Source: Rickettsiales bacterium
Lineage (GTDB): Bacteria > Pseudomonadota > Alphaproteobacteria > Rickettsiales > JABSSG01
Assembly (NCBI GenBank): GCA_020049805.1
Contig: JAGVLN010000029.1
Coordinates: 6,407 to 70,406, forward strand
DNA length: 64,000 nt
Direction of reading: 5' to 3'
Shown: piece by piece, positions 40,395 through 48,489 of the stretch
How the letters are laid out: each line of letters starts with the position of its first letter
How positions within the stretch are numbered: the first letter of the stretch is position 1
The notes under the pieces: model-generated
Databases searched by the model: none
Told to the model about the DNA's origin: nothing
The model's input: only the letters and a program-made list of their open reading frames with translations
Made by a program: the position numbers and the translations under genes

Positions 40395-40868
40395 TTATAA
40401 ATCTTTTGTCTTAATTAGAATAGACCCATCTTGTTCCAAACCATTAGCAAGATATTTACTACGGGCCTCATGTTCAATAACCGCTCTATTTGCTTCAAAA
40501 ATTTTAAGTGGATTATGAGTTCTAATATTTAAGCCAAAATGATCTGACAATGCTTCCCACTCAATTTCACAGCGTATTTGTTTATCTCTATCTTTGCCCC
40601 AGAATATAACAACTAATCTTTTAGGATCATAATATGCCTTAGGCTCTAAAAAAATTAGATCACGTTGATCAACCATACCAAGAACATTGAGTATATTTAA
40701 TACTGAATTAAGTTCTATACTTTTATTACCACTCTCAAAACTTGATATCGTAGGTGCACTAACACCTGCTAATATCGCTAAACGTTGTTGAGTTAGAGCT
40801 TGTTTTTTGCGTCTTTGTTTTGCTTCTTCAACAATAATTGGCCAATTAATGTAAAAGTTCCGTTCCAT
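40395..40868 (-). CDS. XRE-family HTH protein with extra ~80-aa C-terminal domain; putative HipA partner/antitoxin
   Basis: HTH block LTQQRLAILAGVSAPTISSFESGNKSIELNSVLNILNVLGM. The C-terminal 79 aa are ~42% identical (hand alignment) to the C-terminus of the AAA ATPase at 46741-48171. It overlaps the hipA 3' end by 76 nt. Confidence 0.75.
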   Translation of the reverse strand: MERNFYINWPIIVEEAKQRRKKQALTQQRLAILAGVSAPTISSFESGNKSIELNSVLNILNVLGMVDQRDLIFLEPKAYYDPKRLVVIFWGKDRDKQIRCEIEWEALSDHFGLNIRTHNPLKIFEANRAVIEHEARSKYLANGLEQDGSILIKTKDL

Positions 40869-42028
40869 CTTTTCTCCATAATTTCAATAACTCTATTTTT
40901 CAACTCTTTAGAGCCCACATTTGAATTTTCTATTGCTTCTAAAGCCTTATTTAAATTCTTACCTATATCTTCGACTGCAGTAATAATAACTTTTTCATTA
41001 AAATCAAAATCTCTTCCTAGCCGCAATATATGTTTAGGTAAGAGTTTACCTATTTTAAAATCCTCAACTCCATTAATTTTTAAAGCTATTGATTGATATT
41101 GTTTATAAAACGCTGCTCCTAACTGATCATAAGATGGTGTAAGACGCAATCCATCCCTACTATAAAGCATAGCAAAGTTTTTTAAATGTGCATCAGTATT
41201 ACCAACTAAAAGACATACTAAAACCCGTCTAAATAATTTATACACATCACTAATTATACAATTAGGATTACCGTAAATAAATTGTGCCATGTCCTCATAG
41301 GAGCCTTTATATTTATCGAATGAACGATGTCCTAATAACTGATTAAATTCCTCAAAATGTATTTTTTCTCCAGATGGCCTTCTATCAAATCGACGAATAA
41401 CTAAAGCTCTTTCTTTTATTGAATCTATGTTATCAACAATTTCCATTTCAACCACACTATCATCGTGTAATAGCTTACTTACTACCAATGTAGTGATAAA
41501 TTCTAATTCAATTAACTCTGCAAGATTATCAGAAGGTAATTTTGCAATATGAGTACTTAATTCGTTATATTTAACAGGTCGATAAGATTTTCCTTCCTGA
41601 ACTAATAATAATTTACGCTGCACACCAGGAAGTGACGCTCTACCAATTAACGCCGCTTTAGTTACTTTATCTTCATGACTTAAATTACGTCTTGGTATAG
41701 GATCAGGGTCAATAATTGACACTGCTCCAGCAAGGTCATATCCAAACCCTAATAAGAGAGCAAAACTATCATTCGGATCCACGCCTAAAACTTTTGCCTG
41801 AGCATTTTTGAACCATCCTTCAGCAACTAAATTATCAAAAAAAGGAGGTAAGCCATTTTCAGAAATTATAGGTTTTTCAGATATAGGCAAAGTGTAAGCA
41901 ATTTGAGAATTCCCGGCATTAATGTAATCAACATCATATGTAAAACTATACCTATTACCTGGCTCCTGTTGCAACCTCCCAGCATAAAGATCCTTAAAAT
42001 AAATATTTCCCCAAAGTAGTGATGCCAT
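40793..42028 (-). CDS. hipA: HipA-family serine/threonine kinase toxin
   Basis: Couple_hipA-like N-terminus (PPFFDNLVAEGW), Gly-rich loop LPGVQRKLLL, catalytic loop GNTDAHLKNF, Mg-binding TPSYDQLG. All catalytic residues are present. Confidence 0.9.
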   Translation of the reverse strand: MASLLWGNIYFKDLYAGRLQQEPGNRYSFTYDVDYINAGNSQIAYTLPISEKPIISENGLPPFFDNLVAEGWFKNAQAKVLGVDPNDSFALLLGFGYDLAGAVSIIDPDPIPRRNLSHEDKVTKAALIGRASLPGVQRKLLLVQEGKSYRPVKYNELSTHIAKLPSDNLAELIELEFITTLVVSKLLHDDSVVEMEIVDNIDSIKERALVIRRFDRRPSGEKIHFEEFNQLLGHRSFDKYKGSYEDMAQFIYGNPNCIISDVYKLFRRVLVCLLVGNTDAHLKNFAMLYSRDGLRLTPSYDQLGAAFYKQYQSIALKINGVEDFKIGKLLPKHILRLGRDFDFNEKVIITAVEDIGKNLNKALEAIENSNVGSKELKNRVIEIMEKRWNGTFTLIGQLLLKKQNKDAKNKL

Positions 42029-42518: not shown

Positions 42519-43193
42519 TTATATTTTTGTTAATATATAACTACAAGCCAAAATTACGATCGTGGAAATACTTAGTGAAATTGCGAACAATATTTGTATA
42601 TCTATAAATAACATTTGATAATTCACCTGCGCTGCAATCATATTTAGAATGGAAGCGGTATACAGCAAAAGATTAATGGCAAGGGGCATAACTATTAAAC
42701 AATTTACTATAACACCATTACTAATTCTTAAAGTTAAGGCTGAAGCAAATGTAACTAAAGCAGAAACTGTAATTGAAAATAATAATAATACTAAGTAAAT
42801 AGAAAAAAGATTAGTAAAGAGATGGATATTGTAAATAAAGCACAATATCGGTACACTAATACATAAAATAATGAATAGCTGTAACCAATGAGCAAACATC
42901 TTGCTAATCACTATATAAAAACTTGGATAACCAGCAATAATTAACTGCTCTAAACTTGAATCATTAAAATCCTCTTGAAAAATTTCTGGAGCAGAAAGAA
43001 GCTCAGCAAAGATATAAGGCAATAAAATTATATTAAGTACATTAACACCAGTTACTGGTTGTCCACTTAATAGAATAAAAATAAGCAATAAAACTGATAA
43101 TATAAATAATGCTAAACTATTAAAAAAATAACCTTTGCGAATGAAAGCTAGGCTAAAATCACGTTTTAGTATTACAGATAATATTTTACCCAT
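42519..43193 (-). CDS. ccmB: heme exporter permease CcmB
   Basis: 224-aa 6-TM protein overlapping the ccmA stop by 8 nt; canonical ccmA-ccmB pair. Confidence 0.85.
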   Translation of the reverse strand: MGKILSVILKRDFSLAFIRKGYFFNSLALFILSVLLLIFILLSGQPVTGVNVLNIILLPYIFAELLSAPEIFQEDFNDSSLEQLIIAGYPSFYIVISKMFAHWLQLFIILCISVPILCFIYNIHLFTNLFSIYLVLLLFSITVSALVTFASALTLRISNGVIVNCLIVMPLAINLLLYTASILNMIAAQVNYQMLFIDIQILFAISLSISTIVILACSYILTKI

Positions 43194-43821
43194 CTTTAAA
43201 ATCCTCGATATTCAAATAGTGAGCATAAGGCAAATTATCAAAAGCGTGACTAGCGATAATCACTACCCCCCGCTCTCGTACCCTAACTTTTATAAGGTCC
43301 ATTAGTAAATTTTTTGCATTATTATCCAAGTTAATTTCTGGTTCATCTAATAACCATAAATTAGTTTCAGATAATAATAATTTAGCTAATTCTATTTTTC
43401 TTTGCCAACCAGCAGATAATGAGCCAGTCATCACCTCCAACACATCATGTAATTTAAAATGATGAATGGCCGGTAAAAACAATTCTGGCACTCCTTTTAA
43501 TTGACTCCAAAAGCTTAAATTTTCAAATACTGTCAATTCCTTTTTTAAGGCATTATCATGGCCAATATAGCATACATTTTGCTGGAATATATTTAAGTCA
43601 GTATTTATATCGATCTTATTCCACAATATTTTGCCTGGTTTATGATTAATTAGACCAACAAGCATTTTGAGTAAGCAGGTTTTACCACTACCATTAGAGC
43701 CTTTTACAATTAATAAACTACCAGGCAGTAAGGTAAAGCCGACATTTTTAAAAATGTAATTATAATTATTTTCTAAACTTAAATTTTGACAACTTAACAC
43801 TTTTACTCCTTTGACAGACAT
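43186..43821 (-). CDS. ccmA: heme exporter ATPase CcmA
   Basis: Walker A GSNGSGKT, signature LSAGWQRK, Walker B LWLLDEPE. The track ORF start (43950) would overlap acnA, so I chose the internal ATG at 43821. The ATG at 43839 is also possible. Confidence 0.85.
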   Translation of the reverse strand: MSVKGVKVLSCQNLSLENNYNYIFKNVGFTLLPGSLLIVKGSNGSGKTCLLKMLVGLINHKPGKILWNKIDINTDLNIFQQNVCYIGHDNALKKELTVFENLSFWSQLKGVPELFLPAIHHFKLHDVLEVMTGSLSAGWQRKIELAKLLLSETNLWLLDEPEINLDNNAKNLLMDLIKVRVRERGVVIIASHAFDNLPYAHYLNIEDFKDG

Positions 43822-43896
43822 ATGTTGACAATCTATCATAGTAAAGTTAATTTGGAAAAAAAATCTTAATATTTGTTTCGCGAAAGTAGGAGTATC

Positions 43897-46578
43897 ATGA
43901 GCACTAGTTCTAAAAAACTTGCAGTAAATAAAAAATTTAAAGTTGGCCAACAGGAATATACTTATTATTGCCTAAAATCAGCAGCTGAAGAATTAGGTAA
44001 AGATATTTCTAAATTACCAATTACACTAAAAATCTTACTTGAAAATTTACTCCGTAATCAAGATGGTAAAACTGTTGTGATTGAAGATATTGCTGCAGTA
44101 ATGGATTGGGTTCAAACACAACGTTCGGATCATGAAATTGCTTTCCGCCCAGCTAGAGTACTAATGCAAGATTTTACCGGTGTGCCAGCAATAGTAGATT
44201 TGGCAGCTATGCGTGATGCTATGGTTAAGCTTAAAGGAGATCCTAAAAAAATTAACCCACTTTCGCCCGTAGATTTAGTAATCGATCATTCTGTCCAAGT
44301 AGATTATTACGGTGATAAAGACTCTTTTGAAAAAAACGTAGAAAAAGAGTTTGAACGTAATAAAGAACGGTATGAATTTCTACGTTGGGGTCAAGAAGCA
44401 TTAGATAATTTTAAAGTAGTGCCACCAGGCACTGGTATTTGCCATCAAGTAAATTTAGAATATTTAGCTAAAGTTGTATGGTCTAAAAAAAATCATGGTG
44501 AATTAGTTGCTTACCCCGACACCGTTTTTGGTACCGATAGCCATACTACTATGGTAAATGGTTTAGCGGTTTTAGGCTGGGGTGTAGGGGGTATTGAAGC
44601 AGAAGCAGCAATGCTAGGACAACCAACCTCTATGGTTATTCCGGAAGTAATAGGGTTTAAACTTACTGGCCAGCTCTCAGAAGGAGTGACCGCAACTGAT
44701 TTAGTATTAACCGTAACTAATATTTTACGACAAAAAGGTGTAGTAGGTAAGTTTGTAGAGTTTTTCGGTCCTGGCTTAGAAAGCTTGTCTTTAGCAGATC
44801 GCGCTACTATTGCCAATATGTCGCCTGAATTTGGCGCAACTTGCGGCTATTTCCCAATAGATCAAGAGACTTTAAATTATTTAAAACTTTCTGGCCGTGA
44901 CCAACATCAAATCGAGCTGGTAGAAAATTATGCTAAATTACAAGGAATTTGGCATGATCATAATTATACTGACCCAATATTTACTAGCATTATTGAATTA
45001 GACCTAACAACAGTAGAACCTTGTATAGCTGGACCAAAACGTCCTCAAGATAAAGTATTATTATCACAAGTGCCTGGTTCCCTCATAAAAGAACTAGAAA
45101 ATTCCATCAATCCTAATAAATCTATCGATATTAAACACCAGGTTGAAGGAGAAGATTTTAAACTTGGTCATGGAGATTTAGTAATTGCTGCTATTACTAG
45201 CTGTACTAATACTTCAAATCCTAGTGTAATGATTGCTGCTGGCTTAATTGCTAAAAAAGCTTATGAAAAAGGCTTGAAAGTTAAACCTTGGGTCAAAACT
45301 TCTTTAGCACCTGGCTCAAAAGTAGTAACAGAATATTTAGCAGCTACTAATTTACAAGAATATTTAGACAAAGTTGGTTTTTACTTAGTCGGTTATGGCT
45401 GCACTACCTGTATTGGTAATTCCGGACCACTTCATCAACCAATCGAAGATGTAATTAAAAATAATAAATTAATGGTAGCAGCGGCATTATCTGGTAACCG
45501 TAATTTTGAAGGCAGGATTCATCCATTTGTTCAAGCAAGCTACCTAACTTCACCACCATTAGTAGTTGCATACGCTTTGGCTGGAACGATGAATATTGAC
45601 TTAACACATGAAGCAATTGGTAAGGATAAAAATGGCCAAGACATATATTTGAAAGACATTTGGCCATCTAACCAAGAAATAAATGACTATGTTCAAAAAT
45701 ATGTTAGCCCAAAAATGTTTAGGGAAAAATATCAAGATGTATTTAGCGGCGATCATTTATGGCAAAAAATGCAGGTCACCAAAAGTATGAATTACGATTG
45801 GAATGAAGATAGTACTTATGTTAAGAACCCGCCATTTTTTGAGCATATGCAAAGAGATGCTGGTACTATTAAAGAAGTTAAATCAGCTAAATTATTAGCC
45901 TTACTTGGCGATAGTATTACCACCGATCATATTTCTCCAGCCGGTAATATTTCCAATACCAGCCCAGCTGCTAAATATTTACAAGCAAATGGTGTGCAGC
46001 CAGCTGACTTTAACTCTTATGGCGCAAGACGAGGCAATCATGAAGTAATGATGCGTGGTACTTTTGCTAACATCAGGATCAAGAACGAACTTAATCCAGG
46101 TATTGAAGGAGGCGTTACTATCTATTTGCCAACTAAAGAAGTTATGAGCATTTATGACGCAGCTATGAAGTATAAGGAACAAAACATTCCTTTGATTATT
46201 ATTGCTGGCAAAGAATACGGCACTGGTTCTTCCCGAGATTGGGCAGCTAAAGGGCCTCGCTTACTTGGCGTTAAAGCTGTAATTGCTGAAAGTTTTGAAC
46301 GGATTCATCGTTCTAACTTAGTTGGTATGGGCGTAATACCTTTAGTTTTCAAGGGCGGTGTAACCCGTAAAGATTTAGAGTTACAGGGCGATGAAACTTT
46401 CGATATTATCGGTCTTTCACCAAACATGAAACCAAAATCTGAGGTAAGCCTAGTCATCACTTATTCTAATGGCATGACTAAGGAAATTAGTTTGATTTGC
46501 CGCGTGGATACTGTTCAAGAAATTGAATATTTGAAGCATGATGGGATTTTACCTTATATGGTAAGGGAGTTGCTGTAG
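43897..46578 (+). CDS. acnA: aconitate hydratase A
   Basis: About 890 aa with Fe-S ligand blocks ITSCTNTSNP and GCTTCIGNSG and C-terminal swivel GSSRDWAAKG. An AGGAG RBS precedes the ATG at 43897. Confidence 0.97.
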   Translation: MSTSSKKLAVNKKFKVGQQEYTYYCLKSAAEELGKDISKLPITLKILLENLLRNQDGKTVVIEDIAAVMDWVQTQRSDHEIAFRPARVLMQDFTGVPAIVDLAAMRDAMVKLKGDPKKINPLSPVDLVIDHSVQVDYYGDKDSFEKNVEKEFERNKERYEFLRWGQEALDNFKVVPPGTGICHQVNLEYLAKVVWSKKNHGELVAYPDTVFGTDSHTTMVNGLAVLGWGVGGIEAEAAMLGQPTSMVIPEVIGFKLTGQLSEGVTATDLVLTVTNILRQKGVVGKFVEFFGPGLESLSLADRATIANMSPEFGATCGYFPIDQETLNYLKLSGRDQHQIELVENYAKLQGIWHDHNYTDPIFTSIIELDLTTVEPCIAGPKRPQDKVLLSQVPGSLIKELENSINPNKSIDIKHQVEGEDFKLGHGDLVIAAITSCTNTSNPSVMIAAGLIAKKAYEKGLKVKPWVKTSLAPGSKVVTEYLAATNLQEYLDKVGFYLVGYGCTTCIGNSGPLHQPIEDVIKNNKLMVAAALSGNRNFEGRIHPFVQASYLTSPPLVVAYALAGTMNIDLTHEAIGKDKNGQDIYLKDIWPSNQEINDYVQKYVSPKMFREKYQDVFSGDHLWQKMQVTKSMNYDWNEDSTYVKNPPFFEHMQRDAGTIKEVKSAKLLALLGDSITTDHISPAGNISNTSPAAKYLQANGVQPADFNSYGARRGNHEVMMRGTFANIRIKNELNPGIEGGVTIYLPTKEVMSIYDAAMKYKEQNIPLIIIAGKEYGTGSSRDWAAKGPRLLGVKAVIAESFERIHRSNLVGMGVIPLVFKGGVTRKDLELQGDETFDIIGLSPNMKPKSEVSLVITYSNGMTKEISLICRVDTVQEIEYLKHDGILPYMVRELL

Positions 46579-46668
46579 GGTTTTTCGGGCAAATAATAAA
46601 TTACTTATACTGAGCAATCTTGTAAACACCTTGTTATTTCAAAAAACATATGTGTTACTATAAACATA

Positions 46669-46697
46669 TTGACATATTCTTGGTCTTTGGATAAAAT
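46669..46697 (+). promoter_or_regulatory. near-consensus sigma70 promoter for the AAA ATPase gene
   Basis: TTGACA (46669-74), an exact 17-nt spacer and TAAAAT (46692-97), about 45 nt upstream of the AGGAG-GTG start at 46741. Confidence 0.5.
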
Positions 46698-46740
46698 TAG
46701 ACTATACTCCGTTTTTGGCGGACATTTTAGGAGTGAAGTC

Positions 46741-48171
46741 GTGATACCAAGATTACTCAAGTTACCTTTAAAACAAAGCCTTTTTCTTTTTGGACCAAGA
46801 AATACTGGGAAAAGCACACTAATAAGAAATTATTATAGCAAAGATAGCAGTATAATATTTGATTTACTTGATCCTATTATTGAAGATAGATTCGCACGTG
46901 ATCCCTCTGAATTAGAAAAAATTGTAAAGGCATTACCAGAAGAAGTAGAATATGTAATTATAGATGAAATACAAAAACTACCGAAATTACTTGATGTAGT
47001 TCACCATTTAATAGAAACAACTAAAAAATATTACATCATGACAGGCTCTAGTGCTCGTAAGTTAAAGCGTGGTGCTTCTAATTTATTAGCTGGTAGAGCT
47101 TTTGTTTATCATTTATATACGTTTAGCTTTATTGAAATAGAAAACCAATTCGATCTAGAAAACGTATTGAATTGGGGATCACTTCCTAAAATATATGCGC
47201 TTAACAATCCAGAAAGCAAGAAGCAGTTTCTAGATGCGTACTCTCATACTTATCTGAAAGAAGAAATTTGGGGAGAACATTTTATAAGAAATTTAGATCC
47301 GTTCAGGAAATTTCTAGAAGTTGCAGCTCAAATGAACGGCAAAATCATTAATTTTAGTAAAATTGCGTCAGATGTTGGTGTGGATGAGAAAACAATTAAA
47401 AGTTATTACTCAATATTAGAAGATACTATGCTTGGAATATTTTTAGATGGATTTCAGAATTCATTTAGAAAACGCTTAAGCAGCAAACCGAAATTTTATT
47501 TTTTTGATGTTGGAATAACTAGATCATTATCAAGAATGCTTTCAATACCTATGATGCCCAGAACGCCAATGTATGGAGATGCTTTCGAGCAATTTATTAT
47601 ATTAGAATGTATAAAACTCTCAGATTATTTTGGAAATGATTATAGATTCAGTTATTTGCGAACAAAAGATGATGTTGAGATAGATTTAATAGTTGAAAGA
47701 CCTGGTAAAAAGTTACTTTTTATAGAAATTAAAAGTAGTGATAATGTTACTAAAGAATCAATTTCTTCATTTATAAAATTATCTAAAGATTATGGAGATT
47801 GTGAGGCCATATGTTTGTCTAACGATCCATTTTCTAAAGTAATTGAAAATGTAAAGGTAATACCTTGGCAAGAAGGGATTAAAGAATATATTATTAACCG
47901 TAAACTTAGTTTTAATGGGTCAAACCCCATGTATGATAAGGATAGATTGATATTAGCATTTTGGGGCCAGAATGAAAAGGGAGAATCAATTAAATGTTTG
48001 GTTTCCTTAGAGGTTTTATCAGATCAATTTAGGATGAATATAAAAGCTGATAATCCAATAGAAATTTATTCTAAGAATAGAAAAAACATAGAATTAAAAG
48101 CCCAGCATAAATATATTTTTAAAGACATAGAAAAAAATGGTTCAATAACAATTTCAAATAAAGATTTTTAA
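46741..48171 (+). CDS. AAA-family ATPase (COG1373/DUF4143-type) fused to an ~80-aa C-terminal domain shared with the HipA partner
   Basis: Walker A GPRNTGKST, Walker B VIIDEIQ and a DUF4143-like middle part. The GTG start at 46741 has an AGGAG RBS. The C-terminal aa MYDKDRLILAFWG...ITISNKDF are homologous to the C-terminus of the protein at 40395-40868. Confidence 0.75.
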   Translation: MIPRLLKLPLKQSLFLFGPRNTGKSTLIRNYYSKDSSIIFDLLDPIIEDRFARDPSELEKIVKALPEEVEYVIIDEIQKLPKLLDVVHHLIETTKKYYIMTGSSARKLKRGASNLLAGRAFVYHLYTFSFIEIENQFDLENVLNWGSLPKIYALNNPESKKQFLDAYSHTYLKEEIWGEHFIRNLDPFRKFLEVAAQMNGKIINFSKIASDVGVDEKTIKSYYSILEDTMLGIFLDGFQNSFRKRLSSKPKFYFFDVGITRSLSRMLSIPMMPRTPMYGDAFEQFIILECIKLSDYFGNDYRFSYLRTKDDVEIDLIVERPGKKLLFIEIKSSDNVTKESISSFIKLSKDYGDCEAICLSNDPFSKVIENVKVIPWQEGIKEYIINRKLSFNGSNPMYDKDRLILAFWGQNEKGESIKCLVSLEVLSDQFRMNIKADNPIEIYSKNRKNIELKAQHKYIFKDIEKNGSITISNKDF

Positions 48172-48308: not shown

Positions 48309-48343
48309 TTTTTAATTGTACGCAAATTGCGTACAATTAAAAA
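48309..48343. repeat. 35-nt perfect palindrome
   Basis: tttttaattgtacgcaa-a-ttgcgtacaattaaaaa. Every position pairs around centre 48326. Confidence 0.8.
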
Positions 48344-48489
48344 AACTCAATTATAAAAATAATAAAAGGATCTTTCGTATAGATAATAGGCCTATTTTGG
48401 CTTCAAAATTAATCACCATAACATTCCTAAAGCTTTCCTGAATTAATTATGTTACAATTTAATTACTTAATTAATAAAGATTGCGAAAA

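Follow-up and report, generated by a model that had tools for sequence, protein, structure and literature searches.

A DUF1488 domain fused in frame to a COG1373-type ATPase in a single Rickettsiales genome

In a 64,000-nt stretch of the genome of a Rickettsiales bacterium (contig JAGVLN010000029.1; hereafter the window), a gene for a COG1373-type ATPase runs on, in the same frame, into a C-terminal DUF1488 domain. About 7 kb away lies a hipA-type kinase gene with a helix-turn-helix (HTH) partner that ends in a domain of the same family. All coordinates refer to the whole window, and ATPase residue numbers follow a 500-codon open reading frame (ORF) unless the 476-residue query is stated. This ORF occupies 46669-48171 (+), with its stop codon TAA at 48169-48171. 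The TTG at 46669, from which a mechanical ORF list begins the gene, is part of the −35 box in a near-consensus promoter. This promoter-like site (46669..46697, +) combines TTGACA, a 17-nt spacer and the −10 box TAAAAT, scores 11/12, and is the best promoter match of the region. The true start of the ATPase is the GTG at 46741, which gives 476 residues and matches the public annotation. As read from the sequence, the ribosome-binding site AGGAG (46729-46733) precedes this GTG (site and start together, 46729..46743, +), and ATPase homologues begin with MIPRLL, aligning to window residue V25.

The ATPase core (46741..47895, +) is composed of an AAA_14 domain (~46774-47139), a DUF4143 domain (~47284-47739), and a PD-(D/E)xK-like stretch (~47629-47838). 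Pfam matches AAA_14 at E 1.8e-24 and DUF4143 at E 1.7e-34, and the Walker A (GPRNTGKST) and Walker B (IIDE) motifs can be read in the sequence. The Pfam match to Mrr_cat is weak (0.012). The PD-(D/E)xK-like stretch contains a D..E.K motif, EIDL...FIEIK, whose residues E337, D339, E353, and K355 are invariant in an alignment with the closest homologues (alignment A1). With P-loop Walker A and B motifs and DUF4143, the protein is an ATPase of the AAA_14/DUF4143 (COG1373) type. In addition, it matches the PADLOC candidate defence family PDC-S01 at 2.4e-61. It resembles the COG1373-type, PDC-S01 relatives over their full length, sharing the Walker motifs, DUF4143, and the invariant D..E.K. These relatives are at most 92% identical to it and 381-431 residues long; unlike them, among the members seen, only the window ATPase has a DUF1488 tail.

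The earlier note on this stretch, made from the sequence by eye, reported that the last 80 residues of the ATPase resemble the end of the HTH protein, with 33 identities and one gap. BLASTP reproduces this count exactly: the residues encoded by 47929-48168 align with residues 80-157 of the HTH protein at 33/79 identities (42%), 52/79 positives, and one gap (E 6e-23). The Smith-Waterman score of the two modules is 177, compared with 26.8 ± 4.6 in 2000 shuffles (z = 32.7). The note had treated the module as unnamed, and here it needs amending, because the module is Pfam DUF1488 (PF07369), a family with a solved structure, PDB entry 2gpi. Both copies exceed the Pfam gathering threshold of 22 bits, with 32.3 bits (E 9.9e-8) over residues 414-493 of the ATPase and 58.4 bits over residues 72-151 of the HTH protein, and their similarity is statistically real. 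A subfamily hidden Markov model (HMM), built from the DUF1488 halves of HipA-adjacent HTH proteins and excluding the window sequences, gives 65.3 bits (E 1.7e-20) for the ATPase tail and 117.7 bits for the window HTH protein. The window modules belong to a subfamily distinct from classic DUF1488, the tail scoring 65 bits on the subfamily model versus 32 on that of Pfam. Supported by Pfam, the subfamily HMM, AlphaFold2 (AF2), and Foldseek, the module on the ATPase comprises residues 413-500 and the stop codon TAA (47905..48171, +). The span of 47929-48171 given in the earlier note does hold the module, but its start was set too late: the domain begins upstream, at about 47905, with a conserved L-x-F motif (LSF), and 47929 is an internal methionine codon.

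Structure prediction places both modules in the same fold. The AF2 model of the ATPase tail has a mean predicted local distance difference test (pLDDT) score of 90.7, and its sole PDB match in Foldseek at E ≤ 0.001 is 2gpi (template modelling (TM) scores 0.76/0.80, root-mean-square deviation (rmsd) 2.0 Å). The model of the whole HTH-DUF1488 protein has a pLDDT of 85.9 and a predicted TM score (pTM) of 0.56, the latter being consistent with two loosely coupled domains. Its C-terminal domain matches 2gpi (TM 0.82, rmsd 1.5 Å), its N-terminal domain matches the HipB structures 8ezt, 9u9g, and 4pu7, and the arrangement of HTH plus DUF1488 as a whole matches no solved structure in Foldseek. The profile of the HTH-DUF1488 family also finds 2gpi (E 0.0018), and the order of strands and helices is identical in the two module models. 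By these models, both modules are DUF1488 domains with the predicted 2gpi fold, an α+β fold with a four-stranded mixed sheet. The protein in 2gpi, Shew_3726 of Shewanella loihica, is the only DUF1488 member with a solved structure. Its fold has been classed separately and is marked by the left-handed crossover that joins the final two parallel strands (PMC2954204); superposition on 2gpi would imply the same handedness in the window modules. Escherichia coli YrdB is a stand-alone member of 85 residues (PMC4006907). The window modules are like these in their β-sheet, three helices, and final C-terminal strand (TM 0.76-0.82 over 87-90 columns). However, classic members consist of this domain alone (~85-91 residues; PMC2954204, PMC4006907), whereas the window modules are the C-terminal parts of larger proteins. 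Our literature search found no paper that assigns a function to DUF1488, a fold that has lacked one since 2006. Foldseek against viral structures returned nothing at E ≤ 0.001, and scans of viral contigs turned up a single, weak DUF1488 locus but no ATPase.

The second module belongs to the HipA pair. The hipA-type kinase gene (40793..42028, −) encodes 411 residues with Couple_hipA (Pfam, 1.6e-21) and HipA_C (1.7e-37). The gene directly downstream (40395..40868, −) encodes a HipB-like protein of 157 residues, with an XRE-type HTH (~40677-40820; Pfam HTH_3/HTH_31) followed by DUF1488 (residues 71-157, 40398..40658, −). The two genes overlap by 76 nt, at the 3' end of hipA. This bicistron recurs at two other loci, L007 and L008, where an overlap of 76-91 nt is kept. 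The likeness of the HTH to HipB rests on the fold matches given above and on sequence, NCBIfam couple_hipB matching it with 54.5 bits, under the cutoff of that model. The public annotation has only a 93-residue DUF1488 protein from Met65 (P0121), without the HTH. The 157-residue call, including the HipB-like HTH, corrects this local annotation, and 51 other homologues (47-65% identity, most of ~155 residues) almost all have HTH plus DUF1488. With a Couple_hipA/HipA_C kinase gene beside an HTH antitoxin gene, the pair is predicted to be a hipBA-type type II toxin-antitoxin system in reversed order. Reversed hipAB order is already known (Gerdes, Bærentsen & Brodersen 2021, mBio, PMC8262856), and the window pair is like those modules in having the kinase gene first and the HTH protein gene second. 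It differs from them in its HipB-like protein of ~155 residues, the C-terminal DUF1488, and the 76-91 nt overlap with hipA; to judge by a full-text search for the term, DUF1488 does not occur in that paper (PMC8262856). The 40395-40868 gene places its module at the end of an HTH protein, immediately after hipA; the ATPase tail has no such setting.

The ATPase-DUF1488 architecture is new and seen in one genome only. DUF1488 is absent from all of the 120 ATPase homologues listed out of 7998 (AAA_14 plus DUF4143 only). This agrees with the earlier note, which held that such ATPases normally stop after DUF4143 and that the tail marks a domain fusion, and the fusion is genuine. The closest seven homologues, those of alignment A1, all end at window residue ~409-413. 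In the 90%-identity cluster of nine members, the tail occurs only in two 476-residue entries, both from the contig of the window. A scan of GTDB species genomes, whose representatives exclude the genome of the window and whose best ATPase match is 75%, gave 229 loci, and in the best 80 of these the matches cover only residues 1 to ~383-398 of the 476-residue query. Searching from the side of the tail gave the same picture. A phmmer search of 1.84 billion representative proteins with the 91-residue tail produced 33 hits, of which the best reach 35-40% identity and none belongs to an AAA ATPase; a word-index homology search with a 96-residue tail produced zero matches. None of 86 ATPase loci has DUF1488 within ±4 kb, and none of 80 metagenomic DUF1488 loci carries such an ATPase.

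Comparison with other copies of the ATPase gene locates the fusion junction at 47891..47912 (+), where DNA homology to these copies stops, 1-6 codons before their stop codons. The blastn end points are 47891 (L089), 47895 (L090/L093), 47897 (L001/L002), and 47908 (L003). Across the junction, the window frame reads YII and then NRKLSFNG. At the 5' side, homology begins at the −35 box in four of the contexts listed below (46665-46667, at TATTGACA, against L001/L002/L089/L090/L093) and at 46699 in L003; the promoter-like site at 46669..46697 marks the 5' limit of the DNA that the copies share. Copies of this block, at 83-90% nucleotide identity, stand in at least five unrelated contexts (the window, L001/L002, L089, L090-L093, and L003-L005). 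Their C-terminal tails differ by context, the stop codon being preceded by KI, I, PNTLKYN, or DNKLMS, and in the window by 91 codons that include a complete DUF1488. The genes that flank the window ATPase, for an aconitase (acn) and an ankyrin-repeat protein (ank), stand beside no other copy, and there is no synteny. No terminal repeats surround the block. Close homologues of the ATPase are spread over metagenome-assembled genomes of Chlamydiota, Rickettsiales, Legionellales, Coxiellaceae, Holosporales, and Melainabacteria. This spread, together with the sharply bounded block and its own promoter, suggests frequent horizontal transfer. Base composition is uniform over the window genes considered here, and the 91 codons of the tail remain open in a stretch of 27% GC.

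The two window modules share ~40% of their amino acids and 59% of their nucleotides, and their identity at third codon positions is 0.49, that is, saturated. At this divergence they are old paralogues and not a recent copy; a recent intragenomic duplication of the module was considered and rejected on the same two nucleotide figures. Third-codon identity among the ATPase copies is 0.67-0.80, so the fusion postdates the separation of the two modules. Since the ATPase copies are younger than the module split, the tail would have belonged to another gene before it joined the ATPase. In the tail, 12 of the 15 invariant or nearly invariant positions of the subfamily are identical and the other three are conservative (alignment A5, 40 sequences). 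The conserved stretch IEHEARRKY is altered to IELKAQHKY. The tail lies on a long branch, with a median identity of 33% compared with 52% for the window HTH module. By identity, its nearest relative is that HTH module (40%), and a 2-residue loop insertion is found in only three of 83 modules, namely the tail, the window HTH module, and P0194. The shared insertion and the nearest identity hint at an old duplication within the lineage. In a neighbour-joining tree, the two modules are not sisters and the tail falls outside the Fic-type clade, but this tree is unbootstrapped and built on p-distances, so that the placement of the long-branched tail is weak.

The usual contexts of the subfamily are found in metagenomes. 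A scan with a module-only alignment (A6), with loci classified by local HMMs and Pfam, gave 80 loci, a survey that A6 biases toward modules containing IE[HQ]EARRK. A hipA gene with HTH-DUF1488 accounts for ~52/80, of which 35 are complete, 14 have hipA cut by the contig end, and three have a partial hipA. Fic-DUF1488 fusion proteins of ~470-610 residues, with two divergent Fic types, account for another 17/80; at six loci the module lies at a contig edge. The remaining five (L101, L116, L126, L155, and L160) are decayed. L101 is a frameshifted hipA/HTH-DUF1488 locus. In L116 and L126, DUF1488 survives but the HTH is largely or wholly missing; in L155, DUF1488 follows what is left of HipA, its N-terminus; and in L160, HipA residues ~241-280 are joined in frame to DUF1488. 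L116 adjoins a gene for a RES-domain toxin and genes for ankyrin and leucine-rich repeat proteins. An exhaustive phmmer search added one NTP_transf_8-DUF1488 protein. At L095-L097 (P0146), a 161-residue HTH-DUF1488 gene has no hipA upstream. This gene adjoins a divergently oriented AbiEii-type nucleotidyltransferase gene, and the hipA pair of L008 also lies near an AbiEii gene.

Because Fic and NTP_transf_8 fusions and hipA-less HTH-DUF1488 genes occur, the subfamily is tied by its gene contexts to toxin-type systems, but not to HipA alone. Nor is it a generic promiscuous domain, which the earlier note had named as a way in which its proposal could fail: the profile and architecture survey places the subfamily on HipA-partner repressors, Fic enzymes, and one nucleotidyltransferase. 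Like the window ATPase, the Fic-DUF1488 and NTP_transf_8-DUF1488 proteins (for example P0196, L135, L175, and P0193) carry the same subfamily at the extreme C-terminus of an enzyme that uses nucleoside triphosphates (NTPs). Fic-DUF1488 recurs over many metagenomes and is, on that ground, an established architecture, whereas ATPase-DUF1488 is a single case. We found no paper that describes either the Fic-DUF1488 or the NTP_transf_8-DUF1488 architecture. In these usual contexts, DUF1488 is most likely a protein-binding domain, toxin-neutralising or regulatory, on NTP-transferase toxin systems.

With moderate confidence, we lean toward reading the window gene as a young, genome-specific chimera, in which a mobile ATPase block picked up the 3' portion of an older DUF1488 gene and the tail is most likely a passenger. 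The ATPase would move as a self-contained block that begins with its promoter and breaks off a few codons short of the stop codon, and the flanking DNA at each site would provide the final residues and the stop. In the window, the flank would be the 3' part of an older gene of the DUF1488 family, joined in frame at the start of the domain, so that the ATPase would read on for 91 extra codons. A precedent for such capture exists in the DUF1488-only remnants of hipA/HTH-DUF1488 loci (L116, L126, and L155) and in the in-frame fusion of L160. DUF1488 is most likely just carried along on the ATPase, and any role it has there would be lineage-specific at most. Several points weigh against this explanation. 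The donor is a postulated gene, and no ancestral locus of the form aconitase, X-DUF1488, ankyrin was found. Neither an HTH nor a hipA remnant adjoins the ATPase (46.6-48.5 kb). The reading frame is kept across a join that coincides exactly with the domain boundary, and the module retains its conserved residues; an adaptive fusion would look no different. Further functional recruitment is plausible because DUF1488 is repeatedly a C-terminal add-on of conflict-type enzymes. Residues past Y407 are poorly conserved across the ATPase family, and for that reason the boundary before the stop could partly reflect low constraint and not a fixed breakpoint. Expression is counted here as well: a 476-residue product, the ATPase with C-terminal DUF1488, is probably made, and when RNA runs that cover the tail were sought, a single public run (X1), of unspecified type, came up.

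The fusion could instead be an adaptive recruitment, with DUF1488 acting as a portable regulatory or sensor module that gates a PDC-S01-type ATPase-nuclease or binds its partner, a part that it presumably also plays in the Fic and nucleotidyltransferase fusions. We regard this as possible, though rather unlikely. The same subfamily sits at the C-terminus of Fic proteins (two divergent types in the 17 loci) and of NTP_transf_8, the ATPase matches a candidate defence family, and the in-frame join at a domain boundary, the retained conserved positions, and the confident tail model all speak in its favour. However, the fusion is single among thousands of homologues and 1.84e9 representatives, the tail lies on its long branch, and other copies of the ATPase bear arbitrary short tails at the same point. 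Less probable again is the functional link between ATPase and HipA that the earlier note proposed, a shared partner or signal by which the ATPase tail would compete with or replace the HipB-like protein on HipA and so couple the ATPase to the hipAB pair 7 kb away. Antitoxins often bear a C-terminal toxin-binding domain. Both modules are present in one genome and share the rare 2-residue insertion, the HTH module is the nearest relative of the tail by identity, and orphan DUF1488 remnants outlast the decay of hipA. Against this, DUF1488 as the HipA-binding part is an assumption, and the subfamily also occurs on Fic and nucleotidyltransferase proteins without HipA and, in L095-L097, with an HTH but without hipA. 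The modules are only ~40% identical with saturated synonymous sites, and IEHEARRKY is changed in the tail. In addition, ATPase and hipA occur together in no other locus (86 ATPase loci and 80 DUF1488 loci), and the fusion lies on a recombination boundary, the point at which the other ATPase copies have arbitrary ends, so the proposed link finds no comparative support. A broader form of the idea strikes us as equally doubtful. In it, DUF1488 would serve NTP-transferase toxin systems as a portable module for neutralisation or sensing and would have been recruited to a candidate defence ATPase-nuclease, so that the ATPase and hipAB share a partner or cue (for instance, through the tail binding HipA).

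The remaining alternatives concern the gene itself. The tail might be translated alone, or also alone, from the ATG at 47929 as an 80-residue DUF1488 protein, the continuous frame being incidental. The methionine lies ahead of the first strand in the model, two promoter-like hexamers occur at 47865-47894, and stand-alone DUF1488 proteins exist, such as YrdB (85 residues; PMC4006907) and the protein in 2gpi (91 residues). We consider this quite improbable, as no clear Shine-Dalgarno sequence precedes 47929, the conserved L-x-F motif lies upstream of the methionine, promoter-like sites are no commoner than in shuffled sequence (9 versus 12.7 expected), and the public annotation is a single 476-residue protein. 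Finally, the fusion could be an artefact of sequencing or assembly, if the contig contained a chimeric join or had lost a stop codon. The window probably comes from a metagenome-type assembly, and the depth in public runs is low. Nevertheless, a 358-nt Logan contig from the independent public run X1 spans 47809-48166 with zero differences, which argues that the junction is not an artefact of assembly. Other public runs hold both sides of the junction at 100% identity, and the tail is a complete in-frame domain with a well-folding predicted model. We find an artefact hardly credible. Taken with these alternatives, the capture of a DUF1488 gene end by a mobile ATPase block remains the explanation that we favour.

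Several features lie near the fusion gene. A perfect 35-nt palindrome, unique in the window, stands at 48309-48343, between the stop codon of the ATPase-DUF1488 gene and the ankyrin gene. It reads TTTTTAATTGTACGCAA-A-TTGCGTACAATTAAAAA, with 17-nt arms and a 1-nt spacer, and could be an operator or a hairpin. Upstream of the ATPase, the 5' ends of a ccmA-like ABC ATPase ORF (43186-43950, −) and of the aconitase ORF (43873-46578, +) overlap by 78 nt, and the TTG starts that the mechanical list gives to these two ORFs are probably placed too far upstream. Downstream, the window encodes a 276-residue ankyrin-repeat protein (48481-49311, +) and a separate 645-residue protein with a Fic domain and ankyrin repeats (50966-52903, +), whose architecture resembles that of Legionella AnkX. 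The Fic-ankyrin protein, the ankyrin-repeat protein, and a GC content of ~32% suggest an intracellular or amoeba-associated bacterium.

In this study, the ATPase fusion emerges as a single-genome curiosity, yet it offers a clean case of how a mobile block without a fixed 3' end may make a new architecture by read-through. The more useful outcome is the link between a DUF1488 subfamily and toxin systems, where the domain is found on HipB-like partners, on Fic proteins, on a nucleotidyltransferase, and as an orphan after hipA decay. These contexts give a testable hypothesis, namely that DUF1488 may be a toxin-binding or regulatory domain.

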